This document shows, in pieces, positions 14,575 to 58,375 of a DNA stretch of 64,000 nt. A model generated the notes under the pieces. The model did no database searches. It had not been told where the DNA came from and saw nothing but the letters and a program-made list of their open reading frames with translations. The position numbers and the translations under genes were made by a program. Numbering within the stretch: position 1 is the stretch's first letter; every line of letters begins with the position of its first letter. The DNA comes from Candidatus Heimdallarchaeum aukensis (GTDB taxonomy: Archaea > Asgardarchaeota > Heimdallarchaeia > Heimdallarchaeales > Heimdallarchaeaceae): NCBI GenBank assembly GCA_021513695.1, contig CP084166.1, forward strand, positions 736,001-800,000, in the 5' to 3' direction.

Positions 14575-16485
14575 TTATTCAAAGTCATCAGTTTTTACTT
14601 CTTCTTCAAGTTCTTCTTCAATTTCTTCTGATTCTTCAAGCTTTTCTTTTTCAGTTGATTTTTTTGTTTCTGGCTTTTCTTTTTCTTCTTCCTTTAATGG
14701 AGTTTCTTCAGTTAATTCAGAAATTATTTCTTCTTTGATTAATGTCTTTGGGTCTTTTAGTTCTCTCTTCAGTTCATATTTTATTTCTTCTTTTATCTCT
14801 TCCCTTATCTCTTCTTTAATCTCTTCTTTTAATAAAGATAATGCATCTTTAGAAAAATCTTTCATTATCTCTTTCTTCAGTTCTTTTTTTGGTGCTTCTT
14901 TAATCTCTTTCTTTATTTCTTCTTTAATCTCTGCTTTAATCTCTGCTTTAATCTCTTCTTTAATTTCCTCTTTTTCATCTAAGGGTTTTTCTTCAATTTT
15001 ATCCATAATTAACTCCTCTTCAATTTCTTTTTTCTCTTCTTTCTCTTCCTTCTCTTCTTTCTTTTCTCTTTCTTCCTTCTCTTTTTTCTCTTCTTTCTCT
15101 TCTTTCTTTTCTTTCTCTTCCTTCTCTTCTTTCTTTTCTCTTTCTTCCTTCTCTTTTTTCTCTTCTTTCTCTTCTTTCTTTTCTTTCTCTTCCTTCTCTT
15201 CCTTCTTTTCTTTCTTTATTTCACTTTTTGTTGGCTTTTCTTTTACTTTTTTCTCTTCTTTAGTCTTTTCTTTAGTTTCTTTTTCTTCTATTACAGATGC
15301 TTCTTCAGGCTCTTCTATACCAAAAAGTTCTCTCTTTACTTCTTCTTTGATTTCCTCTCTAACAGTTTCTCCAATATCTATTTTCTTCGAAATAGTTTCT
15401 TCTTTAGGAACTGTATCACTAGAAACTGCTTTCTCTTCTTTTTTCTCTTTCTTTTTTATATCTTCAGTAATGATTAATAGAGGAACAGTAACATCAGGGT
15501 CGCTTAACAGATCTATAAACAGTCCATATAAATTGGCTAATTTAGATGGAAGATAAATAATTAATAATCCAAGATCCTTACCAAAACTAATCATTTGGTT
15601 TTTTAACTCTTCATGGTCAGATAAAGAAAGAATTTCGAAATCTACAAATCGTTGTGAATCTTCAAAAACAACTTGATTCGCGCGCTCGAATTTATTCATT
15701 TCTTCTTTTTGTTTTGAAAGTAATTCTAAAAACTCTTCATCATTTAGATCTTGATACAAATATCTATTTAACAAGAACATGCAGTGTATGTTTGCATTTT
15801 TTATACTAAATTGAATAGATTTTTCAATTAAATACGATAGTCTACTTATACTTCCTGTTACTATACCGATGTGTTTCCACAAATACTCAGTATTTAATTC
15901 TTGACTCTCAATTATTAATACGGGAACATCGTTTTCTTCTAAAAGATAATTGAAAACATCACCCATAACTTCTATTTTTGCTTCTTCTTTATCTTCTTCT
16001 TGCTTTACTTTAATACTTTTTTTCATACCAATAAAGGAAGAAGGAACAACAATAAGATCATAGGTTGAAGCGTTAATTATTGCAGAAATAATATTTTTTA
16101 ATCCATCAAGATCTTCAACAACATGACCTTTAATATTAAAAAGTTTGCTAGATAGATGCTCATATGCAAAAGACAATGCTTCATCATACTGTTCTTTATT
16201 TGTATCTTCTTTAGAATAAAAACAGATAACATCTACCGTTGCTTGGAAGAACAATCTGAGTTCTTCAGCAAGTAAAACAACAGTACGAGATTTTTTAGAA
16301 CCATCTATAAGAACTAATACACTTTTTATTGGTTTAGCTGAAGGATCAACTGAAGGTAGAAGGTTTGCAAACTTCTTTTTCTGCTCCTCAATTGTTTCCT
16401 TTTGCACTTCTATTTTATCCTGATGATTGGACATACTAATTCCTCTCTCTATGCTTTTTAATTTTTCTTTTTGATTTTTAAACAT
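14575..16485 (-). CDS. tandem universal-stress-protein (UspA) domain protein with ~300-aa C-terminal poly-Lys/Glu low-complexity tail
   Basis: Two USP-like units (VLVLIDGSKKSR...LIVVPSS and IGIVTGSISRLS...LLIITED). These are followed by EEIKEEVKRE..., (EIKx)n and an (EEKEEKEKKEEKEEKKEKEEREKK)n tail. ATG start. Confidence 0.65.
   Translation of the reverse strand: MFKNQKEKLKSIERGISMSNHQDKIEVQKETIEEQKKKFANLLPSVDPSAKPIKSVLVLIDGSKKSRTVVLLAEELRLFFQATVDVICFYSKEDTNKEQYDEALSFAYEHLSSKLFNIKGHVVEDLDGLKNIISAIINASTYDLIVVPSSFIGMKKSIKVKQEEDKEEAKIEVMGDVFNYLLEENDVPVLIIESQELNTEYLWKHIGIVTGSISRLSYLIEKSIQFSIKNANIHCMFLLNRYLYQDLNDEEFLELLSKQKEEMNKFERANQVVFEDSQRFVDFEILSLSDHEELKNQMISFGKDLGLLIIYLPSKLANLYGLFIDLLSDPDVTVPLLIITEDIKKKEKKEEKAVSSDTVPKEETISKKIDIGETVREEIKEEVKRELFGIEEPEEASVIEEKETKEKTKEEKKVKEKPTKSEIKKEKKEEKEEKEKKEEKEEKKEKEEREKKEEKEEKEKKEEKEEKKEKEEREKKEEKEEKEEKKEIEEELIMDKIEEKPLDEKEEIKEEIKAEIKAEIKEEIKKEIKEAPKKELKKEIMKDFSKDALSLLKEEIKEEIREEIKEEIKYELKRELKDPKTLIKEEIISELTEETPLKEEEKEKPETKKSTEKEKLEESEEIEEELEEEVKTDDFE
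15041..15200. repeat. perfect 72-bp tandem repeat (2.2 copies) inside the K/E-rich coding tail
   Basis: 15041-15112 is identical to 15113-15184 and the next ~16 nt continue the unit. Each unit encodes a 24-aa K/E repeat on the minus strand. Confidence 0.9.
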
Positions 16486-21918: not shown

Positions 21919-22764
21919 ATGGTAGCAGAGGATAATATACATCATTCATATGACTCTACTGAAGGTGAGTTTACTGTAAAAGCAACTAATCTTGTTAAAA
22001 GGTTTGGTGATGTAATTGCTGTAAATAACCTTACTTTTAACGTGAGAAAAGGAGAGATTTTTGGACTTTTGGGACCAAATGGAGCAGGAAAAACAACTAC
22101 TGTAAAAATGATATTAGGATTATTGGAACCTGATGAGGGAGAAATAAGAGTATTTGATCTTCATCCTGAAAAAGATGAAATCGAGGTTAAAAAAAGAGTA
22201 GGGTATGTCTCAGAAGAACCTCTAATTTACCGTTCTATGACTGCTAGACAATTATTTAATTTTGTAGCTTCCTTAAGGAATTTGGAACCAGAAGAATTTA
22301 ACCAGAAGCTTCAATCCCTTTTAGAAAGTTTTGAAGCTCTACCTTATTATGATAAAATAATAGCTACTCTTTCAAGAGGAAATAAGCAAAAAATGCAAGT
22401 TATTGCTTCCTTATTACATGAACCAGATTTGCTAATTATGGATGAACCTCTAACCGGATTAGATGCAAAATCAGCTAAAGTCCTAAAAGAAATCTTAGAG
22501 ATGCATAAAGAAAAAGGAGGTTCGGTTATTCTTTCTACCCACATTTTAGAGATCGCTGAAGAGCTATGCGACAGAATAGCAATAATTGATCATGGAAAAT
22601 TGGTAGCTTTAGGTACAATAGAAGAGCTGTCTCATTTAGCTAACAAAGTAGGAGCCGACCTTGAAGATATTTTCCTAAAACTAATCAATCAAGATGAATC
22701 CGTGGATATAATTGTTGATAAATTGAGAAAGTCTTTGAAAAATGGAAAAAACAACAAGAAATAG
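21919..22764 (+). CDS. ABC transporter ATP-binding protein
   Basis: Walker A GPNGAGKTT, the signature LSRGNKQKM, Walker B LLIMDEPLTGLD, and an H-loop. Confidence 0.9.
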   Translation: MVAEDNIHHSYDSTEGEFTVKATNLVKRFGDVIAVNNLTFNVRKGEIFGLLGPNGAGKTTTVKMILGLLEPDEGEIRVFDLHPEKDEIEVKKRVGYVSEEPLIYRSMTARQLFNFVASLRNLEPEEFNQKLQSLLESFEALPYYDKIIATLSRGNKQKMQVIASLLHEPDLLIMDEPLTGLDAKSAKVLKEILEMHKEKGGSVILSTHILEIAEELCDRIAIIDHGKLVALGTIEELSHLANKVGADLEDIFLKLINQDESVDIIVDKLRKSLKNGKNNKK

Positions 22765-24508
22765 AGGGATAGGAGTGGCTAGTTTAATTTCTTTGTATAA
22801 ATTATCGAAAAGAGTTTATCATGAATCAATTTTACATTCTCAATTAGAATCATCTGGTAGCAATATTGCCAAATTATTAGAGAGAATAGGTAGAAATCCA
22901 AAAATCATCTCTTCTCAACCAAAAATAATGAAATTTTTGTCTTCTTTTTACATTCTCTTTTTAACAATAATCCCTGTAAGATCCATAACCGTAGTTAATT
23001 TTATAATATCAAGTAACAAACCCTCCCACACTCAAATACCACAACAGTGGATTACACTTGTAGGAAGTATGATGTCCAGTGCTTTTTTACTTTTAGAACC
23101 TTTTATTCTGATAATTTTTTCTATAATGATGACTTGGGGATTGTTCTCACCAGAAATTTATGCTTGGCCACAAACTCTACCTCTTAGAAAAAAAGATGTT
23201 GAAAAATTAAGCCTTTTAACCTTCATAAGAGGAATAAACATTCAATTACTCTTTATGATATTAGTATTTCCTTTAGGAATAGCTATAGGCATTTTAATTG
23301 ATTTTTCACTTTATTCACCTATAATGGCCTTTTTATTAATTCTTACTGCACTTATTATATCAATAGTCTCAGCTTTCTTCAATTTAGGTGTTGTTGTTTT
23401 TATTTCCAAAAAAATGTATATTTTGATGGATGAAAAAGAAGACAATTCAGGGAAATCTTCAATAATTAAAACAACTATTTCGCTCCTTTATTTAATTTTT
23501 TCAATGACTTTAATGTATATTATCCAAATCTCAATTGAAAAAATTCCTGATTACTTTACAACAGTTCTACTGTCAAATGAACAATCTTTATTGGTTAACA
23601 ATATTTTAAGCTTTATTCCATTTCCTTTCTCTGGGGGATACTTGATTACTATCCTTATAACAAATCATTCTCTTTACTTTTCACCTATTACAGTCATTGG
23701 TTCCATAACTGGCTTGATTGTATTTGCAATTCTCACCTATTTTCTAATAAAACATTCTGTAAGTACGCTTCTAAACACACCTAAAATAAAATCGGATTCA
23801 ATGAAAGAAAAAAGGAATAAAAAAGAAATAATTGTTCAATTGCAAACAACTTCTCCTCTAAAAGCATTTATTCGGAGAGATCTGACAATAATTTCAAGAG
23901 ATATGCAATTGATAATGGTTTTTGTCATGCCAATTGTTATTCCAATCTTTGCAGTGATTACAGATATTGAAGACAATGTTTTATTAAATGAGGTTGGACT
24001 TACAGGAGCTTTTCTCTCTGTCTTATTTTACATAGCTTTGACTACTTACATGATAATAACAGGTGTTACAAACATTGAATCTGGAGGAGAAACAATTACC
24101 TCATCAATTCCAATAAGAACAAGAGATCAAGTTAAGAGTAAAATTCCCTACTTTTTCACATCAATAGTTCTAGCTTTTCTTATATGGCACTTGTTTTTCA
24201 TTAATGATGAATTTTTCTCGAAAATGATAGTATTTGGTCTTGTTTATCTTCCAGTTATCCCTTTAGCAGGTATAGGAGGATTGTTTTTCAAAATACTCAT
24301 GTTTGGAAAGTTAAGATACAAGTATGTAGTAGAAGAAATAAAAACAGAACATCGTTTTATTAAACATATTAGTTCATTTCTGTTTGTTCTACTATCTTTG
24401 TTACTTTTTGTAGGACTCTCTTTCCTTGGATATGGGGCTTTGGGAATAGGAGAAATAGTTTACTTGACTCTATTAATTGTTGTATTTAATCATATGTTCC
24501 CGAAGTAA
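22742..24508 (+). CDS. polytopic membrane protein, probable permease partner of the ABC ATPase
   Basis: Its start overlaps the ATPase stop by 23 nt. It has at least 12 hydrophobic segments and no other motifs. Confidence 0.5.
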   Translation: MEKTTRNRGIGVASLISLYKLSKRVYHESILHSQLESSGSNIAKLLERIGRNPKIISSQPKIMKFLSSFYILFLTIIPVRSITVVNFIISSNKPSHTQIPQQWITLVGSMMSSAFLLLEPFILIIFSIMMTWGLFSPEIYAWPQTLPLRKKDVEKLSLLTFIRGINIQLLFMILVFPLGIAIGILIDFSLYSPIMAFLLILTALIISIVSAFFNLGVVVFISKKMYILMDEKEDNSGKSSIIKTTISLLYLIFSMTLMYIIQISIEKIPDYFTTVLLSNEQSLLVNNILSFIPFPFSGGYLITILITNHSLYFSPITVIGSITGLIVFAILTYFLIKHSVSTLLNTPKIKSDSMKEKRNKKEIIVQLQTTSPLKAFIRRDLTIISRDMQLIMVFVMPIVIPIFAVITDIEDNVLLNEVGLTGAFLSVLFYIALTTYMIITGVTNIESGGETITSSIPIRTRDQVKSKIPYFFTSIVLAFLIWHLFFINDEFFSKMIVFGLVYLPVIPLAGIGGLFFKILMFGKLRYKYVVEEIKTEHRFIKHISSFLFVLLSLLLFVGLSFLGYGALGIGEIVYLTLLIVVFNHMFPK

Positions 24509-27056: not shown

Positions 27057-27908
27057 TTAAGAAGCTAGCATCACTCTTCTTGATTCAGGTCTGTATATAA
27101 CAACTCCAATCTCATGCATGAAACTTACTGCTCTTTTTACTTCAACAGCTGAAAGGTTCAATATTGCTGTTAATTCGTCTAGAGTAAGACTATTTGATTT
27201 TGAGTCCTGTAAAGCTAAAAAAACTCTTCCATGGTCGGTAGAATTTAATAGTATCCTTAAAAGTGAAGATTGCTCCTCTCTTTTTGTTTCTTGGAGCTCT
27301 TTCTCTTGTGCAATGCTTTTTTCTGTCTCTTCTTTTAATTGCTCTTTTTCTTGTTTAATTTTTTCTACTTCCTCTGTCTTTTCTTTTAATTGTCTTTCTA
27401 AATCTATTAATTTAGAAGATAAGTCGGTATTCTCAACGTTAAGTTGCTCCGTTTCTAATTTTAAGTTGTTAAATTCTCTCATCTTGACTTCAAGATCTTT
27501 TTCAATCATCACTTGTTTCTCTTTTAGTTGAGAAATTAAAGCTTCTTTTTCATCTAAAAGAGTGGTTAACCTTTTAATTTCTTTTACTTTTTTTTCTATT
27601 ACTTTGTTAAGATCTTCTAGATATGAGTTAGATTTAGACATTTCATCTTTAAGTTCTTCAATTTTTTTATCTTGTAAATTAGATCTGGAAATAATTAATT
27701 CTGAAATATCAATTATTTTGTTATTGAATGACTTTTCAGTTTCATTGATGTATTGTTTTAAATCTTCTTTGAGATCTGTTATATTTTTTGAGCTATCTTT
27801 TTTTTGAGCATCCAGTTGAATTTCAATACTCGATTTTAGTTCTGATAGTGTGTCGGAGATTTTAATTACCGATTCTAATATTTGCTCTATATCTTTACCT
27901 TTAACCAT
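27057..27908 (-). CDS. coiled-coil protein with C-terminal winged-helix-like domain
   Basis: About 200 aa of heptad-rich coiled coil (LKEEL/EKE repeats) followed by LTLDELTAILNLSAVEVKRAVSFMHEIGVVIY, which is wHTH-like. Confidence 0.45.
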   Translation of the reverse strand: MVKGKDIEQILESVIKISDTLSELKSSIEIQLDAQKKDSSKNITDLKEDLKQYINETEKSFNNKIIDISELIISRSNLQDKKIEELKDEMSKSNSYLEDLNKVIEKKVKEIKRLTTLLDEKEALISQLKEKQVMIEKDLEVKMREFNNLKLETEQLNVENTDLSSKLIDLERQLKEKTEEVEKIKQEKEQLKEETEKSIAQEKELQETKREEQSSLLRILLNSTDHGRVFLALQDSKSNSLTLDELTAILNLSAVEVKRAVSFMHEIGVVIYRPESRRVMLAS

Positions 27909-31985: not shown

Positions 31986-33083
31986 TTAAGGTATAATTTC
32001 AGTCGTATTATTGTATTTAGGATAGTTCAAATCCTCTTTTCTTATAATTCCATTTTCTATTAATTTTTCAACATCTGGTTTTATTTTTTTCAATTCAGAG
32101 ATAAGATGCTTTACTGTTCTACAGACTTTAGCAAAACCTTCTTCTCCCCATAACTTTGTTTTGTTTGCAAAAAGACACCTTCCTCCACACAAATCATATA
32201 CTTCACAACTTAAACAAGGTTCTTCTATCAATACAGAGTTTAGAACATCAGAAGGCTTATTCTCTTTAATGTTTCCTACCACTGAAAATTCATATTCTGG
32301 AGGAAGAGGACAAACTGTTATAACTCCATCAGTTCTTACAGCAAAACTTGTTAATCCTGCTTGACATGGAAGAGAAGTTTTCTTATCGTTTAAAATATTC
32401 CAAAAAATACCCAAAAAAGGAACTATTCCGAGAATTTTTCCTTTTTTCATCTCTTTTAACCAATAATTAACTAATTTCGATATACCATTATTGTAATTTA
32501 TGATCCAACTATCCAGATCTTTCCACCTGGTGTGTTCTATATCATCCCATAAAACATCAAGTTGCCAATGAACATGGTTAAATCCTAACTCTTCATCATT
32601 CAGTAAGAAATATACATCCCGAAAAATGTCTGCTGTTTCAGAAACTGCCATTCTTGCTATTAAATCTCCTTTAAATCCTTTTTCCCTTATAATCCTGATA
32701 TTATCCTTTATTTTATCAAAAACTCCTTCTCCTCTGTTAGCATCTGTAATTTCCTTATCACCATCAATAGATATTAGAATTGTTGAAAATCGCAGTAAAT
32801 ACTCTTTAGATAACTTGTTTAAAAGCCATCCGTTAGTCTGAATTGTGTAATGTTCCGCATGGATCTCATCCATTACTTCTTTAATCAGTTTTAGATTAAG
32901 TAGTGGTTCTCCGCCATAAAAAGCTATAGTAGGATTAGGATCTTGAGAAATAAAATTCTTCAATTGTTTGATATCCCAGCTTGCATTAACTGGTAAATCG
33001 GGATGGGGTTCATTTTGGCAATATTGACAGTAGAAATTGCACCTATTTGTCGTTACTAAAAACCAGTTCATTCTTACTTTCAC
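31986..33083 (-). CDS. radical SAM enzyme with C-terminal SPASM/twitch domain (anSME-like maturase)
   Basis: An N-terminal CNFYCQYC (Cx3Cx2C) cluster. The C-terminal Cys cluster is CQAG...C, CLSCEVYDLCGGRC, then C. Confidence 0.8.
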   Translation of the reverse strand: MKVRMNWFLVTTNRCNFYCQYCQNEPHPDLPVNASWDIKQLKNFISQDPNPTIAFYGGEPLLNLKLIKEVMDEIHAEHYTIQTNGWLLNKLSKEYLLRFSTILISIDGDKEITDANRGEGVFDKIKDNIRIIREKGFKGDLIARMAVSETADIFRDVYFLLNDEELGFNHVHWQLDVLWDDIEHTRWKDLDSWIINYNNGISKLVNYWLKEMKKGKILGIVPFLGIFWNILNDKKTSLPCQAGLTSFAVRTDGVITVCPLPPEYEFSVVGNIKENKPSDVLNSVLIEEPCLSCEVYDLCGGRCLFANKTKLWGEEGFAKVCRTVKHLISELKKIKPDVEKLIENGIIRKEDLNYPKYNNTTEIIP

Positions 33084-33238: not shown

Positions 33239-34219
33239 GTGATGCGTTTGAAAATAATCATTACAACAGAAACTGGAGAATTGCTATTTTCATATGATTC
33301 CTTTACTGAAAATAGAAAATACGATAACGTACTGATTACTGGGTTGATTTCTGCAATTGTGGTTCTATCCAATGAAGTAGTTAGTTCTTTTCCAAGAGAA
33401 ATCGAATTTGAAGGAAAAATTCTTTATTTTTATAGAGAAAATGAATTTATAGCAGCTTTACTTGCAGATATAGAGTCACCTTTTAATGGTAGTATTCTTC
33501 CAGTTATTTTAGGAGAATTTAAGAAAGTACAAGAAAAACATGGCTTTCCTACACATAAAGCAATGAGATATGACAAAGAAATTGCTTATGCAGTAAAAGA
33601 TTGTTTAGCCATGTATTTAGCAAACATGCAGAAAAAGATGGTCAAATTATTAGATGACACAGATGTAGCGGATTACAATTCAATTATAAAAGTTAAAGCT
33701 GTAGCTAAAGATTTTTTGAAAGATGCAGCTCAATTTTTGCCTATTGATTTAATTTGCAGAATGATTCCTGATGGAATGGATAAAATTCTTTATAGTTTGA
33801 TTGTAGGTATTCCTATTGTAATTTCAGGAAACAAAGATATTGTTGAGCAGTTAATTAATAGTCTAAGAATGCTTTGTCCTACAAGAATTTTAAAAATAAA
33901 ATTTTGGTCAGACAAATATATTACAGGATATGACATTATAGGAACAAATGACATAAAAATAGTTAAACCTTCACTTTATCAATTGTACATTGATATTAAT
34001 AACGGAATAGTTTTAGGGGGTAAATCATCACAATATTTCAAAGATATTGAATGTCAAATATGTAATCTAAATACTGTAGAAGCTTTTAACTTCATAAGAA
34101 GCGAGTTGAATTGGATTTTCCAAGCATTCGAAGAATTAAAAATAGATGTTTTTTCTAAAAAATCACTACCACTTGAAAAACAGCTAATTTTGTTTGAACT
34201 TTTAAAAAGGTTACATTAA
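33239..34219 (+). CDS. hypothetical protein with N-terminal longin/roadblock-like fold
   Basis: Residues 1-100 show a beta-alpha-beta-beta pattern (KIIITTETGELLFSY / ITGLISAIVVLSNEV / GKILYFYRENEFIAALLAD). The remaining ~220 aa are unassigned. Confidence 0.4.
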   Translation: MMRLKIIITTETGELLFSYDSFTENRKYDNVLITGLISAIVVLSNEVVSSFPREIEFEGKILYFYRENEFIAALLADIESPFNGSILPVILGEFKKVQEKHGFPTHKAMRYDKEIAYAVKDCLAMYLANMQKKMVKLLDDTDVADYNSIIKVKAVAKDFLKDAAQFLPIDLICRMIPDGMDKILYSLIVGIPIVISGNKDIVEQLINSLRMLCPTRILKIKFWSDKYITGYDIIGTNDIKIVKPSLYQLYIDINNGIVLGGKSSQYFKDIECQICNLNTVEAFNFIRSELNWIFQAFEELKIDVFSKKSLPLEKQLILFELLKRLH

Positions 34220-34278: not shown

Positions 34279-34599
34279 GTGATGATTGTGGAGAAAAAAT
34301 CTAAAACTACTATAAAAAAATGGATTTCAAATTTAGATATCAGAAAATTAAGTTTTAGAGGAAAACTCATAATAATTATTTCATTTCTCCTTATCAGTTC
34401 TGCAATCATAATTAATTACATCAATAACTTTCAAGGAAAGATAGTAAAATATTCTGTTTGGATTCTTTTCGGTTGGTTTTTTCTCATAATAATTTTCTAT
34501 ATATCAATTAAACTACTCTCATTCACAGTTCTACGAAATAAGCAACAAAAGTTAAAAGAAGAAATAGAAAGTGATAAATTTGATCAGAGTAAAGATTAA
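34279..34599 (+). CDS. small 2-TM membrane protein (106 aa)
   Basis: GTG followed by ATG start. Two hydrophobic helices. The stop overlaps the next gene. Confidence 0.4.
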   Translation: MMIVEKKSKTTIKKWISNLDIRKLSFRGKLIIIISFLLISSAIIINYINNFQGKIVKYSVWILFGWFFLIIIFYISIKLLSFTVLRNKQQKLKEEIESDKFDQSKD

Positions 34600-34900
34600 A
34601 CCAAAAATTGCACACGTTGTTTTTGAAATTATAGCACTACTTGCAGCCATTGCAGGTTCTCTTTACATTGCTTCTATTGCTAATAAAATTGTATTATGGA
34701 TTTTTGAGACAATAATTGTCATTGTTCTGCTTTTCTTTGGTGGAAAGAGTATATACAATAAAATGAAACCATTTTATGTTTCAGCTCCCTTAAGAGAAGA
34801 CATGATAAAGGATCAAGAAGGTAGAAAGAGAATAATAACAGAACCTACAAAAAGAGGATTAACCAATGAAGACAAAGAAATTCAAAAAAATGACGAATAG
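34571..34900 (+). CDS. small 2-TM membrane protein (109 aa)
   Basis: GTG start overlaps the previous gene's end. Two hydrophobic helices and a charged tail. Confidence 0.4.
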   Translation: MINLIRVKIKPKIAHVVFEIIALLAAIAGSLYIASIANKIVLWIFETIIVIVLLFFGGKSIYNKMKPFYVSAPLREDMIKDQEGRKRIITEPTKRGLTNEDKEIQKNDE

Positions 34901-35096
34901 AGAATATTCAAGAGTCTATGCTACTGTTTTTCTTTTAATAATTAGTTTTCCTGTTGTTTTTATATCACAAAAATATATAGTTCCTTTTTTAGGAAATTAT
35001 GAAACAATTTATTGGTTTAGCGTTTTTTTATTACTTTCTTTTACTTTTCCCTTATTTAATTCAATTTTTTCAAAGATCATAGATAAAGAAAAATGA
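34866..35096 (+). CDS. small 2-TM membrane protein (76 aa)
   Basis: ATG start overlaps the previous gene's end. Basic N-terminus and two helices. Confidence 0.4.
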   Translation: MKTKKFKKMTNREYSRVYATVFLLIISFPVVFISQKYIVPFLGNYETIYWFSVFLLLSFTFPLFNSIFSKIIDKEK

Positions 35097-35181: not shown

Positions 35182-35400
35182 ATGACTGAAAGAATTATCC
35201 CTTTAATCTCACATTGTAAACAAGAAAAGATATCTATTTCACTACTTCTTTCTTCTTTAAGACTAATAGAAAAAGGCTTGATAAGAAAACAGTCTGAACT
35301 TAATGAATATCTCAAAAGAAGAGCAAAATATGAACCTCGAATCTTGAAAGATATTGAAAAAGTAGAAAGGTTGATTGTTGAAAGTAATATCATCAAATAA
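35182..35400 (+). CDS. small protein (72 aa), possible regulator
   Basis: Preferred over the overlapping antisense ORF 35175..35396, which is low-complexity. Confidence 0.3.
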   Translation: MTERIIPLISHCKQEKISISLLLSSLRLIEKGLIRKQSELNEYLKRRAKYEPRILKDIEKVERLIVESNIIK

Positions 35401-35405
35401 TTAAA

Positions 35406-36782
35406 TCATTCTATAACTTTCTTTCTTTTAGCATATTGTATCAGCATTTTAATGGCATAAGCAGCTTCTCGTGGATTTAGAAATATGGGACTACTTTCTT
35501 TTTTGGCTATTCTCTTAGATTCATTTAACAAATTTCCACTCATGAATATGGGAATTATAGGTTTCTTTCTACCTGTTTCATTCCACGCTCTAATAACTCC
35601 TTCATAATGTTCTGATGTGGTCATTCCTAAAAATGTGGGTATTACTGCAATTGGAACAACAATATCAATGTTAGGATCTTCTAGCATTGCTTTAGTTACT
35701 TCATAGTACTCTTTTCCAGTTGCTCCTGCTATCATATCCAGAGGATTAACCTTTTTTACTAAAGGAATCAAAAAAGGATCAATTTTCTCTTTGAACTCTT
35801 CAGTAAATGTGGCTAGTTTTAGTCCGAAATCATCCGCAAAATCACTGAACATCACTGCACTTCCTCCACTATTTGTTAGTACTCCTATTTTTTCGCCTTT
35901 AGGAAGTGGAAGAAATGAAAAAGCTTTAATTGCAGCAATGTAATCTGTGATACTTTCACACATTATGGCTCCTGCTTGTTTAACTGCTGTTTTTAGAGAA
36001 CTATAGTCTGTAGCCATAGAACCTGTATGGCTTGAAGCTGCTCCCATTCCAGTAGCAGTTCTTCCTCCTTTAAGTACAACAACGGGTTTATCTTTTGCTA
36101 CTTCATGTAGTTCTTCATAAAATACTCTTCCATCAACAACATTTTCTAAATAAATAGTTACCACTTTTGTGTTTTCATCTTCCTTATAGAACCTTAAAAC
36201 ATCTGTTAAATTTATGTCTGCCATATTTCCTAAATTTGCAAATTTAGAGAATCCTAATCCTTGCCAAACCATTTCATACAAAACTATTGCCCCAACTGAA
36301 CCTGATTGTGTAATCATGCTTACATTTCCTTTAGGTGGGGTTTGAATGAATGATGCATTCATTCCTATATCTACATTTTGTATTCCTACACAGTTAGGTC
36401 CTATTAACCTTATTCCTGCATCTTTCAATTTTTGAGATAACTGTTCTTGCACTTTTCTTCCTTCTTCATTAATTTCTGCAAAACCAGCAGTTACGATAAT
36501 AATCCTCTTAACTTTTTTCTCTATACATTCATCGACAACATGAGGAACAATCTTTGCAGGAACAAGTAAAATCGCTAAATCGATCTCATCTGGTATTTCT
36601 AGTACAGACTTATATGCTTTTAATCCTCCAATAGTTTCAGCTTTAGGATGAACAGGACACAATTTTGCTTTCAGATCTTTATTCTCCATTAAGTTAGCTG
36701 TTACAGCATGTCCAAACTTTTTTTCATTATCTGTCGCACCAATAATTGCAATAGAATCTGGATAGAAAAACTTCCTAGTCAT
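35406..36782 (-). CDS. acetyl-CoA synthetase (ADP-forming) alpha subunit / CoA-binding + succinyl-CoA-synthetase-like domains
   Basis: N-terminal CoA-binding Rossmann (SIAIIGATDNEKKFGH) and SCS-alpha-like flavodoxin domains. A phosphohistidine-loop context is present. Confidence 0.75.
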   Translation of the reverse strand: MTRKFFYPDSIAIIGATDNEKKFGHAVTANLMENKDLKAKLCPVHPKAETIGGLKAYKSVLEIPDEIDLAILLVPAKIVPHVVDECIEKKVKRIIIVTAGFAEINEEGRKVQEQLSQKLKDAGIRLIGPNCVGIQNVDIGMNASFIQTPPKGNVSMITQSGSVGAIVLYEMVWQGLGFSKFANLGNMADINLTDVLRFYKEDENTKVVTIYLENVVDGRVFYEELHEVAKDKPVVVLKGGRTATGMGAASSHTGSMATDYSSLKTAVKQAGAIMCESITDYIAAIKAFSFLPLPKGEKIGVLTNSGGSAVMFSDFADDFGLKLATFTEEFKEKIDPFLIPLVKKVNPLDMIAGATGKEYYEVTKAMLEDPNIDIVVPIAVIPTFLGMTTSEHYEGVIRAWNETGRKKPIIPIFMSGNLLNESKRIAKKESSPIFLNPREAAYAIKMLIQYAKRKKVIE

Positions 36783-36872
36783 TGTTCTTTTTAGAAATTG
36801 TGTCCTTTTAATTTTTTCTTATTGAACTAAAAAAAGAGTGAAAAAGAGTTTTCAAAATATTAAGACGATTTT

Positions 36873-37835
36873 TTATTGGTTTATATATCCGTGCTCAATT
36901 ACACACTTATCAGCGTCTAGATTTAAAACACTTATAGTATACTTTTTGATGTCATCATAACTTGTACTCGTCTTATCTATAAGATCAGCGAGAATATCAA
37001 GCAACCTCCTAGCTTCCTCGTGACTTTCATCAGTTTTTATTACCAATCCAAAGATATGAGATTGTGAAGAACGGAGAATGAATTTATAGTCTTTAGACAT
37101 GATAAACTGAATAATATTTTGTTCATTGAAAGTTTTTTTTGCAAAAGTTTGTATAGCTGAGAGAAAACCAGAATAGAGAGATATTTTATCTGAAAGTTTT
37201 TTCTTTGAGATACTTAAAATTGGCAATCCATCTCTATCTGCAAGTAAAAAAGACTCAGGAGTAACTTTTCTTTTTTGAATAAGTTTAGATAACTGATTTT
37301 GTAACCAATATAGGACAGAATCAAAATTTTCTCCAGTTTGCATGCTTATCTTAAAAAATTGAAAAGAGGCATTTGGAATCATAGCGAGATTATATATTTC
37401 CACGGTATTGATAATTTCTTCCAGGTTCATACTATTTTCTAAATCTGCTTTGTTACACAGAAATAGAATTAGAAACTCATCTCCGTTATCTTTTAACTTT
37501 ATTGACTTCCAAAATTCTTCTTTTGCTTCAAGTAATGATTCTCTATCTGAAGAATCAATGATAAAAATTATCCCATAAGCTAACTTAATGTAATTTTCCC
37601 AGATAGTCTTTCTAAAAACTTCTTGTCCCCCTAAATCAAAAATATTTACTTTTAGATCAAATAGTTCATATTGTTCTAACTGAACCCCCATAGTTGGTTT
37701 AGGACTAGTGAATTTTCCTGTGAGAATTCTGTTAACAAAAGTAGTTTTTCCAGCATTAGGTAAACCTAAAATTACTAAAGGAATTCCTTTTTTCTCAAAA
37801 GAAAGTAGTTTTTCAGATATTTTCTTCTTACTCAA
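36873..37835 (-). CDS. Arf/Rag(Gtr)-like small GTPase fused to a C-terminal roadblock/longin-like domain
   Basis: G1 GLPNAGKTT; switch I KPTMGVQLE; G3 FDLGGQEVF....W.NY (Arf/Rag-type DxGGQ); G4 NKAD; G5 ISMQTGENF. The ~140-aa C-terminal domain shows a beta-beta-alpha-beta-beta-beta-alpha pattern (FLLADRDGLPILSI...IFGLVIKTDE...LLDILADLI). Confidence 0.75.
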   Translation of the reverse strand: MSKKKISEKLLSFEKKGIPLVILGLPNAGKTTFVNRILTGKFTSPKPTMGVQLEQYELFDLKVNIFDLGGQEVFRKTIWENYIKLAYGIIFIIDSSDRESLLEAKEEFWKSIKLKDNGDEFLILFLCNKADLENSMNLEEIINTVEIYNLAMIPNASFQFFKISMQTGENFDSVLYWLQNQLSKLIQKRKVTPESFLLADRDGLPILSISKKKLSDKISLYSGFLSAIQTFAKKTFNEQNIIQFIMSKDYKFILRSSQSHIFGLVIKTDESHEEARRLLDILADLIDKTSTSYDDIKKYTISVLNLDADKCVIEHGYINQ

Positions 37836-39104: not shown

Positions 39105-40541
39105 ATGAAAATAATGAAAGAAGGATTAACTTTTGATGATGTTCTTCTTATTCCTAAACGTTCCTCTGTCCGCTCTAGACGAGAAATAGATACTTCTACA
39201 CAGTTATCTAAGAATATTAGATTGAACATCCCTATAGTAAGTGCAAATATGGACACAGTTACAGAAAGTGCGATGGCTATTGTTATGGCACAACAAGGAG
39301 GAATAGGAATCATACATCGATTTATGCCTATAGTTGAACAAGTAAACGAAGTTAACAAAGTTAAACGTGCTGAAATGATAAGAATTGACAATCCTTATTG
39401 CTTAAAGCCTGAAACCTCGTTACAAGAAGCTAAAGAGTTTATGAAAGAAAAAGGAATATCAGGATTGCTCATTACAGATAACAATAACATTTTACAAGGA
39501 ATTCTTACTTCACGAGACATTAAATTTACAGAAGATGAAAATGTTTTAGTAAAAGAACTAATGTCAACAGATCTTATTACAGCAAGACCAGATATTTCGA
39601 TTGAGGAAGCAAAAAATATTCTAAAGAAGAATAGAATTGAAAAACTTCCCCTTGTTGATGAAAAAGGAGTAGTAAGAGGACTAATAACAGCAACAGATAT
39701 TATCAAGGCTAAAATATTACCTAAAGCAAGTAAGGATTCTAAAGGAAGGTTAAGAGTAGGTGCAGCAATAGGAGTAGTAGGAGATTATTTAGAAAGAGCA
39801 GAAGCCCTTTATAATGCTGGAGCTGATGTTCTAGTTTTAGATATCGCACATGGTCATTCAGATTTGGCAATAAATGCAATAAAAGAAATTAGAAAGAATC
39901 TTGGAGATGTAGAATTAATTTCGGGAAATGTTGCTACAGCAGAAGGAGCAAAAGATCTAATTGAAGCGGGTAGTGATGGAATTAAAACTGGAGTGGGGCC
40001 AGGTTCAATATGTATAACAAGAGTAGTGGCAGGAGCTGGTGTTCCACAACTTACAGCTATAATTGAAACATCAAAAGTAGCTAAAGACTATGGGGTGCCT
40101 GTAATCGCAGACGGAGGCATTCGTACTTCAGGAGATATTACTAAGGCTATAGCTGCAGGAGCACAAACAGTTATGATTGGAAGCTTACTAGCAGGAACTG
40201 AAGAAAGTCCTGGAGCAGCTATTCTAAGACATGGGAGAAGATATAAAGTTGTCAGAGGAATGGCTTCTCTTGGAGCTACATTAGGTCGAGAAGCAAAAGA
40301 AAAGAAAGGAAGTTTTGACGAATTTGATTTAGGTTCTGTGGTTCCAGAAGGAGTAGAAGCAATGGTGCCATATCGTGGTTCAGCAGTAGACGTATTGAAT
40401 CAGCTAGTAGGTGGATTTAGAAGTGGTGTAAGTTACTGCGGAGCTTCTTCGATTCCAGAAATGCAAGAAAAAGCAGAATTTATAAAAATAACCTCTGCAG
40501 GAAGAAAAGAATCAACATCACATGATGTAGAATTAATTTAA
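39105..40541 (+). CDS. guaB: IMP dehydrogenase with CBS pair
   Basis: [13 protein letters not shown] start, a CBS pair at residues 100-210, the catalytic loop [20 protein letters not shown] and GGIRTSGDI. Confidence 0.9.
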
Positions 40542-57103: not shown

Positions 57104-58375
57104 CTATTTAGTGTTCTTCTTTACCTTTGAAAAAATAAAATTAACAGTAAAAACGACCACAAATAAAGCAAGCGTACCTATAAAGTAATAGATTGCGGGA
57201 TTGTTTAAGAATGTGTAAACACCAAAATAGGAAGTTGTCCATCTATATCCATCTTTAGAGAAGAAGAAAGCTATTTCAGGTGTTTGAAGACTTGATTTTA
57301 CACTTGGCCCTTGTTCTGTTGCTACAACGACATTGTCCTTAAATGTTGTTACTTCAGGAACACGTTCATAATAATCATCATGAAGTGGAGAAGAAATGTT
57401 ATGGAATTCTAGCGTTTCTTCTTTTGTAATGTCTTCTACCCAGAAGCCCCAGAGAAACATTTCATAACGATTGACTTTATGGATAGTTGTATTGCTGATA
57501 TCCTGGGCAACAACGTAAAATCCATCATTCCATCTTGTTAATGATGGATACAACAAACCTACATCTTGAGCAACAACTTCAGTTAAGTTTGCATCTGCTA
57601 AATCTAATTGGAAAGGTGCTCCTACAGATATTCCAGAACTAAATGAACTACCATCTACGGTGGATGTAAGTTTAACTAGATTGTCTTCTGTATAAGTAAT
57701 ATACAATAAATTATTATATGAATATAAGTTAAAATCTCTTCCCAAACTTATTGAAGCAGAAGTTACTTCTGTACTATTTTTAAATGTCTGTAAATCAAAA
57801 TGAACAATGCTTGTTAATACTCGTGTATGTACGATAACTTTGACTTCATAGCTGAAAAATATAACTAATTCATTATTGAGAATAGCAGAGTCAAACCACA
57901 CAAAATCCTTATTGAAGACAGTAGAATTACCCAGTTCTACATAGTCGCTCCATGTTTTTCCATCATCATCTGAATATTTCATAAAGAAATATGTGAAATC
58001 AGTGTCATTTCTTTGTATTGCAAAAAGTACCATAGTTCGTCCATTATAATATATAGCATCACTCTTCTGAACTTTAAAGGAAGTTTTATTGATCACAAAA
58101 GTTGTCGGAGTTATCTCTATTTCTTCAGTATCATGCGTTTTAAACTCTGTAACAGTTTCATAACATGGTCTAGCATAGATTTCCGAACTAACTACTCTAT
58201 CAGCGTCATAACCAATTTTAGTATAAATTAGCAAATACTGTTCAGGAGAAGTTTCTATGAAATATGGACTCTTTTCGTGATAAAGTATTTTTGCCTTTGC
58301 TACATAAGGATTAAATGCATTAAGAAGCAAAATGAATATTGATAACAAAACGATTTTTTTCACTGCTCTTCTCAT
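57104..58375 (-). CDS. secreted BNR/Asp-box repeat (sialidase-like beta-propeller) protein with C-terminal TM anchor
   Basis: Signal peptide MRRAVKKIVLLSIFILLLNAF. Asp-boxes YSDDDGKTWSDY and FSKDGYRWT. C-terminal helix LALFVVVFTVNFIF followed by a KKNTK stop-transfer. Confidence 0.5.
   Translation of the reverse strand: MRRAVKKIVLLSIFILLLNAFNPYVAKAKILYHEKSPYFIETSPEQYLLIYTKIGYDADRVVSSEIYARPCYETVTEFKTHDTEEIEITPTTFVINKTSFKVQKSDAIYYNGRTMVLFAIQRNDTDFTYFFMKYSDDDGKTWSDYVELGNSTVFNKDFVWFDSAILNNELVIFFSYEVKVIVHTRVLTSIVHFDLQTFKNSTEVTSASISLGRDFNLYSYNNLLYITYTEDNLVKLTSTVDGSSFSSGISVGAPFQLDLADANLTEVVAQDVGLLYPSLTRWNDGFYVVAQDISNTTIHKVNRYEMFLWGFWVEDITKEETLEFHNISSPLHDDYYERVPEVTTFKDNVVVATEQGPSVKSSLQTPEIAFFFSKDGYRWTTSYFGVYTFLNNPAIYYFIGTLALFVVVFTVNFIFSKVKKNTK

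Follow-up and report, generated by a model that had tools for sequence, protein, structure and literature searches.

Gene T and its family

The window analysed here comprises 64,000 nucleotides (nt) of the genome of Candidatus Heimdallarchaeum aukensis (contig CP084166.1, positions 736,001 to 800,000), and the gene under study, termed T, encodes a protein of 326 amino acids (aa) that is assigned with high confidence, as regards both fold and architecture, as a minimal longin–DENN protein. T is an unannotated member of a class already reported in Asgard archaea. The gene and its parts are arranged as follows, in positions of the window.

33239..34219, + strand: gene T, longin–DENN protein, 326 aa; likely true start ATG at 33242
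33239..33661, + strand: N-terminal longin domain, aa 1-141, ββαβββαα
33662..33742, + strand: helical linker, aa 142-168, of low confidence (predicted local distance difference test score, pLDDT, below 50-55 at residues 137-160)
33743..34219, + strand: C-terminal DENN domain, aa 169-326, with an α/β core carrying the motif ILYSLIVGIPIVISGNKDIVEQLINSLRMLCP, and terminal helices

The listed GTG start is directly followed by an ATG (33239..33244), which is the likelier start because it agrees with the N-termini of the homologues. The exact 326-aa sequence was absent from the protein collection searched, probably because annotators start at the ATG, giving 325 aa. A search of 5.8 billion proteins yielded 33 homologue clusters with 48-92% identity to T, all of them from metagenome-assembled genomes of Heimdallarchaeota/Heimdallarchaeaceae, each of ~325 aa and labelled 'hypothetical', and none of the 33 with a precomputed Pfam domain. 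In Ca. H. endolithica, whose genome is closed (CP084167.1), the same locus is found with 92% protein identity. Longin GAP subunits form obligate heterodimers with a second longin–DENN subunit; hmmsearch detected no paralogue of T in the 64-kb window. T is a real gene under selection, the alignment of 30 family members having a mean column identity of 73% and 54 invariant columns.

Fold and domain architecture

In the AlphaFold2 model of T, which was built from the 30-sequence family alignment and reached a mean pLDDT of 77 and a predicted template modelling score (pTM) of 0.50, residues 4-141 adopt the order β-β-α-β-β-β-α-α, that is the longin (uDENN) topology. This bears out the N-terminal longin fold that had been proposed in an earlier note made from the sequence of this stretch. 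The wider label given there, 'longin/roadblock', holds in its first half and fails in its second, because the domain of T starts with strands and, unlike a longin domain, a roadblock domain starts with a helix. Residues 169-325 are modelled as an α/β domain followed by helices, and T thus carries a central α/β DENN core after the longin domain in the same chain. The C-terminal part, which the earlier note had left as ~220 unassigned residues, is a DENN domain according to the model, Foldseek and Folliculin_C. The best full-length Foldseek matches are FLCN (6ulg_L, 1.4e-6; 8dhb_J), SMCR8/C9orf72 (6lt0, 7mge) and DENND1B.

Sequence comparison points in the same direction at lower strength. The sole Pfam signal in T is Folliculin_C at residues 177-232, which is sub-threshold (E 0.01, 15.8 bits vs a cut-off of 27); the match is found again, likewise sub-threshold, in 22 of the 30 sequences of the family, where E is 9.8e-5 at best. 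T does not reach the gathering score of a curated DENN-type Pfam model, and no match was obtained in NCBIfam. When 1.8 billion representative proteins were searched with a profile, 107 clusters proved to be related to T via residues ~166-305 at E<1e-3, and members of the distant clusters match Folliculin_C (5.9e-6), Folliculin, C9orf72-like and SMCR8_C. The core motif ILYSLIVGIPIVISGNKDIVEQLINSLRMLCP was aligned to SMCR8 723-755 through a distant-relative profile, and hhalign placed T 183-232 on FLCN 364-414, a weak match (E 0.034) covering the DENN core only. Coiled-coil matches of the T family to solved structures (HlyD, E 0.08) were judged spurious. The assignment of T as longin plus DENN hence follows from the fold model, the structure matches and the weak, concordant sequence matches.

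An AT-rich window, with a GC content of only ~30%, and the lack of any Pfam match at threshold could be taken to mean that the reading frame or its apparent fold is a product of chance. The probability of this is close to nil: it is already refuted by the conservation of the 33 homologues with their invariant columns and by the concurrence of two fold-search methods, with both of which the weak sequence matches are consistent.

Gene order in the window

T is surrounded by a series of genes in the order radical-SAM(-), T(+), s1(+), s2(+), s3(+), s4(+), CoA-ligase-like(-), GTPase(-), epimerase(+) and IMPDH(+), of which the following bear on the interpretation or delimit the locus.

31986..33083, - strand: radical-SAM/SPASM enzyme (Pfam), divergent upstream neighbour of T
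34279..34599, + strand: s1, 106 aa, two predicted transmembrane (TM) helices (hydropathy), 59 nt downstream of T
34571..34900, + strand: s2, 109 aa, two predicted TM helices, overlaps s1
34866..35096, + strand: s3, 76 aa, two predicted TM helices, s1 paralogue, overlaps s2
35182..35400, + strand: s4, 72 aa, soluble helical protein, no Pfam match
35406..36782, - strand: CoA-binding/succinyl-CoA-ligase-like protein of the ADP-forming acyl-CoA synthetase type (Succ_CoA_lig 2.9e-43, CoA_binding_2 5.5e-26)
36873..37835, - strand: Arf-family small GTPase, 320 aa, candidate client of T (Pfam Arf 1e-35)
37272..37835, - strand: G domain of the GTPase, aa 1-188 (AlphaFold2)
36927..37253, - strand: C-terminal longin-type domain of the GTPase, aa 195-303 (Pfam Fuz_longin_1 1.9e-5; AlphaFold2 ββαβββαα)
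39105..40541, + strand: IMPDH

T and s1-s4 run in the same direction and either overlap or lie <=60 nt apart, which suggests that they form one transcript. The jackhmmer profile of s1 also matches s3 positions, and no Pfam family matches any of s1-s4 at threshold. T and the GTPase gene lie 2.65 kb apart in convergent orientation, with s1-s4 and the CoA-ligase-like gene between them. The CoA-ligase-like gene is downstream of and co-directional with the GTPase gene (35406..37835, - strand), and both may constitute a transcription unit of a GTPase and a metabolic enzyme. No stand-alone roadblock gene lies beside T, and the co-directional set of DENN, GTPase and roadblock genes that marks the Asgard 'DENN operon' is not found there. 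Elsewhere in the window, four open reading frames have no Pfam match at E<=1e-3 (14575..16485, -, 636 aa; 22742..24508, +, 588 aa; 27057..27908, -, 283 aa; 57104..58375, -, 423 aa), and the remaining genes belong to ordinary metabolism, transport and two-component signalling.

The neighbouring GTPase

The GTPase is 100% identical to a protein listed by NCBI for Ca. H. aukensis and features normal motifs, comprising the P-loop GLPNAGKT, the switch I Thr, DLGGQ and NKxD. Its AlphaFold2 model (pLDDT 81, pTM 0.82) displays a G domain with a short N-terminal helix, and the best Foldseek matches are the Asgard HodArfR1 (8ouk) and eukaryotic Arf1/Arl proteins at ~30% identity. A match to Gtr1_RagA or the Rag family was not found in Pfam. 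The label 'Rag-like' used in the earlier note was consequently rejected as imprecise, given the Arf match of 1e-35, the lack of Gtr1_RagA and a structure nearest to Arf/ArfR; the description 'roadblock-fused' is imprecise as well, the C-terminal domain being of longin type with additional weak Pfam matches to LAMTOR3 and Robl_LC7. At codon 71 in switch II, the proteins of Ca. H. aukensis and endolithica carry DLGGQ and most orthologues at ~50% identity carry DLGGH; a His at the catalytic position of switch II is the Sar1-type arrangement. Proteins combining a GTPase with a longin-type C-terminal part form an architecture class that has been called Rag-like or Arf-like (Tran et al., PMC10933270).

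Residues 2-13 of the GTPase (37800..37835, - strand), SKKKISEKLLSF, include a helix at 3-10 in the AlphaFold2 model, in which positions i, i+4 and i+7 are hydrophobic; F13 is near-invariant. This N-terminal helix may be an Arf-like amphipathic membrane-binding helix.

Conservation of the locus across relatives

The neighbourhood was compared across 29 GTDB species-level loci and six further loci from contig look-ups, the locus scan reaching T orthologues only. The gene order of the window is kept across these loci with the exceptions L002, L003/L004/L029 and L005/L006, and the intervals are as follows.

T to GTPase: 2.5-3.2 kb in 27 of the 28 loci with both ends visible
CoA ligase to GTPase: 52-291 nt in 27 loci
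radical SAM to T: 0.1-2.7 kb in 23 loci
GTPase to epimerase: 0.14-4 kb among syntenic loci, in 19 loci

An s1 homologue adjoins T in 32 loci (jackhmmer) with a T-s1 gap of 62-559 nt across loci, and s2, s3 and s4 are conserved in 27, 25 and 28 loci, respectively. In the L003/L004/L029 lineage, s1 is inverted and s2-s3 are lost. In L005 and L006 the genes are rearranged to GTPase(-) CoA(+) s1(+) s2(+) T(+) rSAM(+), where rSAM denotes the radical-SAM gene; these are the only loci with an inverted CoA gene, the members are still adjacent, and T is co-directional with s1-s2. In addition, the IMPDH orthologue of L005 (L005:155-2956) comprises 933 aa with weak Hint/Intein_splicing matches and seems to contain an intein, which the IMPDH of the window lacks.

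Beyond the radical-SAM gene, the synteny of ParB, MFS and other genes is confined to the 92% relative and is lost in relatives of 50-60% identity. The edges of the T-GTPase block carry insertions, and its interior has none. Genome-wide collinearity as the full cause of the synteny was partly rejected in view of the non-syntenic flanks and the edge-only insertions, and the inherited order of a small island may explain it. The GTPase family and the T family share the same narrow taxonomic range. Pairwise distances of T and GTPase correlate in a mirror-tree comparison (r = 0.91), and a partial correlation controlling for the CoA ligase amounts to r = 0.66 (permutation p ~5e-4).

The functional link between T and this GTPase that the earlier note had drawn from their proximity therefore stands in part and is circumstantial: a GTPase orthologue is found near T in 27 of 28 loci and the taxonomic ranges agree, but the genes are convergent with five genes between them, and the linkage is lost in L002. 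A somewhat unlikely alternative takes the order as incidental and inherited, with T being a non-catalytic FNIP- or DENND10-like subunit whose partner is encoded elsewhere and whose GTPase is another one. The Heimdall, Hod and Thor genomes are indeed rich in paralogues (the 107 representative clusters at E<1e-3), unrelated enzymes reside within the conserved block, L002 has lost the linkage, and Asgard GTPases generally do not lie beside their regulators (PMC10933270). This alternative is opposed by the T-GTPase block, which stays compact and unchanged in 27 of 28 loci while the flanks gain insertions and which outlasts internal rearrangement (L005), and by the matching taxonomic range of the two families.

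Catalytic motifs

Catalytic longin GTPase-activating proteins (GAPs), namely FLCN, SMCR8, C9orf72 and NPRL2, possess a Gly-Pro (GP) motif directly ahead of β2 together with an arginine finger, which is R164 in FLCN, R78 in NPRL2 and R147 in SMCR8; a class of Asgard longins carries the same two marks (Traffic 2025 survey, PMC12290439). According to the sequence of PDB 6ulg_L, GP of human FLCN is G15-P16, between the first two strands, and R164 lies within 'SLARGFQ', between the last two strands and ahead of helix α2. The FLCN strands were read from sequence, and the hairpins of T and FLCN were equated by secondary-structure register, with no superposition.

GP is absent from the T family: the β1-β2 loop has an invariant G13, and the next residue is E or Q in all 30 members. 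A conserved Arg is likewise missing from the β4-β5 hairpin of T (aa 66-69), position 66 being R, N, T, F, I, Y, Q or K across the family. By sequence, T belongs to the non-GP class, as do FNIP, NPRL3 and the guanine nucleotide exchange factors (GEFs) of the DENND type, and the absence of both marks suggests that it would be GEF-like or a non-catalytic scaffold rather than a catalytic GAP subunit.

A different arginine is found in F51-P52-R53-E54 (33389..33400), ahead of β3, which is near-invariant in the family, with R53 replaced by Lys in one orthologue (P0030). Judging from the topology of the model, the α1-β3 loop with R53 probably sits at the same end of the sheet as both catalytic loops, where R53 might act as a non-canonical finger. 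The F-P-R-E of T resembles the P-G-R-E-G-P stretch (135-140) ahead of β3 in FLCN, which may be coincidence.

Very unlikely, in our estimate, is a role of T as a catalytic GAP subunit of the FLCN/SMCR8/NPRL2 type whose arginine finger would enter the Arf-like GTPase encoded nearby. Such a role would fit FLCN and SMCR8 as the best structural matches of T, the near-invariance of R53 at the sheet end shared with the β1-β2 and β4-β5 loops, the similar FLCN stretch ahead of β3, and an Arf-like client as in the case of C9orf72-SMCR8 (PMC12290439). It conflicts with E or Q in place of the proline after G13, with the missing arginine at the site of FLCN R164, with the Lys of P0030, and with the lack of a partner longin–DENN gene near T, since GP-type paralogues form tandem pairs beside a GTPase gene, as detailed below.

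Asgard paralogues of T

Longin–DENN proteins with FLCN architecture have already been reported from Asgard archaea and Heimdallarchaeia, along with an Asgard DENN operon of a LAMTOR1-like roadblock protein, a Rab-like GTPase and a DENN protein (Liu et al., bioRxiv 10.1101/2020.10.19.343400), and Asgard longins of the FLCN/SMCR8 type have been discussed (PMC12290439). Among the distant paralogues retrieved here, GP is present in P0051, P0068 and P0076 as well as in a 395-aa protein encoded on a metagenomic Asgard contig (L039:4802-7817). The latter gene is followed in tandem by a second longin–DENN gene (363 aa), both products having GP after β1, and a GTPase gene lies 20 nt downstream, whose 234-aa product matches Arf and Gtr1_RagA. 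By analogy, this operon unites a folliculin/FNIP-like pair and the GTPase presumed to be its client, in line with the account of Asgard DENN proteins by Liu et al.

Nearest to T among the non-GP paralogues are P0037 and P0043 (L037:6001-7857, L038:935-2802). Each is followed after 16-57 nt by the gene of a conserved protein of 243-270 aa with ~5-6 TM helices; the two membrane proteins share 47% mutual identity (E 3e-71), and a comparison with s1-s3 detected no similarity. A non-GP longin–DENN gene followed by a membrane-protein gene hence recurs in two families, which is regarded as a lead and not as a rule.

Proposed function of T

To our knowledge, every characterised protein that combines longin and DENN (the DENN, FLCN and C9orf72 families) binds small GTPases. 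By analogy, T would be a binding platform for a small GTPase, with control over the nucleotide state or the location of that GTPase, acting either in a GEF-like manner or as a non-catalytic scaffold subunit. It would be co-transcribed with s1-s3, which in turn would tether it to the membrane, and the neighbouring Arf-family GTPase would be its most likely client, the C-terminal longin-type domain of which could pair with the longin domain of T in the manner of the longin/roadblock pairing in FLCN-FNIP-Rag-Ragulator. This composite reading, drawn from analogy and gene order, of T as a GEF-like or non-catalytic DENN-type GTPase platform that is recruited to the membrane by s1-s3 and serves the Arf-longin GTPase, is given an even chance. 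As a separate claim, the neighbouring GTPase as the specific client of T is tentative and rather doubtful. The composite reading gains support from other Asgard longin–DENN genes that share a true operon with a GTPase gene (L039; Liu et al., bioRxiv 10.1101/2020.10.19.343400) and from the action of C9orf72-SMCR8 on Arf GTPases (PMC12290439). The more general proposal of the earlier note, a candidate component of small-GTPase regulation, is supported and has been strengthened by the DENN domain, with which T acquires a folliculin/DENND-type architecture. That note had overlooked the DENN domain, the lack of GAP motifs and the fact that T is linked more tightly to the small membrane proteins.

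Several points weigh against the GEF-like or scaffolding platform and its proposed client. The alignment underlying the model of T is shallow, with an effective number of sequences of ~2, the orientation of the domains relative to each other is uncertain (pTM 0.50), and so is helix α1 (pLDDT 53-63). GTPase binding by T, the direction of regulation, the membrane tethering and the identity of the client are inferred, as opposed to the fold, architecture, motif absence and gene order, which are observed. T and the GTPase gene, being convergent with five genes between them, are not co-transcribed. The longin domain of T and the C-terminal domain of the GTPase were aligned in register by hhalign but with a probability of 8%, and nothing beyond a common fold class is read from this alignment. 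L002, the orthologue locus of greatest divergence (49% identity), lacks the Arf-longin GTPase and s1-s4, the whole neighbourhood being lost; in this locus (L002:4717-10966) T is located downstream of three co-directional genes encoding a Ras/Roc-like GTPase, a gelsolin-repeat protein and a NosD/beta-helix protein, the GTPase being 3.4 kb upstream of T and comprising 636 aa with an unassigned C-terminal extension of ~440 aa. Moreover, the mirror-tree signal lacks specificity: a value of r = 0.87 is obtained between the two enzymes CoA ligase and radical SAM, so the correlation of T and GTPase is taken as compatible with co-evolution and not as proof thereof. The conserved block also contains the radical SAM, CoA ligase and epimerase genes, which have no obvious connection, and its shared order may hence be inherited rather than selected. 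Finally, gene neighbourhood is generally a poor guide to Asgard GTPase-regulator pairs (Tran et al., PMC10933270).

The close linkage of T to s1-s3 also invites a reading devoid of any GTPase, in which T is a cytoplasmic adaptor or chaperone for these proteins and its longin domain is used as in SNAREs or the SRP receptor. This is quite unlikely in view of the established GTPase binding of all characterised longin+DENN proteins and of the other Asgard members that are operonic with GTPases. The platform reading can, on the other hand, be extended to a single membrane-anchored switch module of T, s1-s3 and the convergent Arf-longin GTPase, in which the two longin domains would pair, the DENN domain of T would be placed on the G domain, and the chemistry would be unlike that of GP/arginine-finger GAPs; a wiring to acyl-CoA metabolism would be possible because the GTPase gene is co-directional with the ADP-forming acyl-CoA synthetase-like gene. 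We consider this extension unlikely; if true, the module would be a simplified prokaryotic equivalent of the FLCN-FNIP/Rag-Ragulator assembly of lysosomes or of the C9orf72-SMCR8/Arf assembly.

Implications

On the endomembranes of eukaryotes, Rag, Arf and Rab GTPases are under the control of longin–DENN complexes such as folliculin, C9orf72–SMCR8 and the DENNDs, and the occurrence of such complexes in Heimdallarchaeia contributes to the argument that this machinery predates eukaryotes. We know of no archaeal longin–DENN protein that has yet been matched to its client GTPase. T and its neighbour thus offer a concrete, testable candidate pair of archaeal regulator and GTPase, and the closed genome, a small soluble-looking T, the nearby Arf-like GTPase and the candidate membrane partners make for a practical trio for assays. 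At least two flavours of Asgard longin–DENN proteins can be discerned, the GP type, encoded in tandem beside a GTPase gene, and the non-GP type beside membrane-protein genes, and this split bears on the divergence of GAP and GEF functions of the longin–DENN fold. In the literature searched, no description was found of the absence of GP and Arg motifs in the T family, of the fixed association of T with three mini-proteins of two TM helices each, or of the conserved convergent pairing of T with an Arf-longin GTPase and an acyl-CoA synthetase-like gene.

Comparison with known systems

FLCN/FNIP is a longin–DENN heterodimer that acts as GAP for RagC/D. FLCN comprises 579 aa as compared with 326 aa in T, which is devoid of a zinc-binding or disordered insert and shares only 11-16% sequence identity with FLCN, the Pfam match being sub-threshold (15.8 vs 27 bits). 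T also differs in lacking GP and the Arg at the hairpin equivalent to that of R164, no FNIP-like partner gene adjoins it, and its neighbouring GTPase is Arf-like and not a Rag.

C9orf72–SMCR8 is a longin–DENN GAP that acts on Arf GTPases (PMC12290439), the family to which the neighbouring GTPase of T belongs. T shares the architecture of longin plus DENN with this complex, as reflected by the structural matches 6lt0 and 7mge and by the alignment of its core DENN motif to SMCR8 723-755. However, T lacks the GP of both subunits and the R147-type finger of SMCR8 (PMC12290439). A WDR41-like subunit does not accompany T.

DENND10 and DENND1 are minimal DENN proteins, of which DENND1 is the GEF of Rab35, and they display the same two-domain build of longin and DENN as T. 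On the contrary, T has no detectable similarity to the Pfam DENN/uDENN/dDENN models, and the clients of DENND proteins are Rabs, whereas the candidate client of T is Arf-like. MglB/roadblock proteins and the other longin platforms, TRAPP Bet5/Trs23 and Mon1-Ccz1, are set apart from T by its longin instead of roadblock topology and by its additional DENN domain.

Within the Asgard archaea, T differs from the FLCN/SMCR8-type longins with GP and Arg finger (PMC12290439). As a Heimdallarchaeaceae protein of longin plus DENN, it belongs to exactly the class of Asgard DENN proteins described previously (Liu et al., bioRxiv 10.1101/2020.10.19.343400), and instead of the DENN operon reported there, it is found together with three mini-proteins of two TM helices and convergent with an Arf-longin GTPase.
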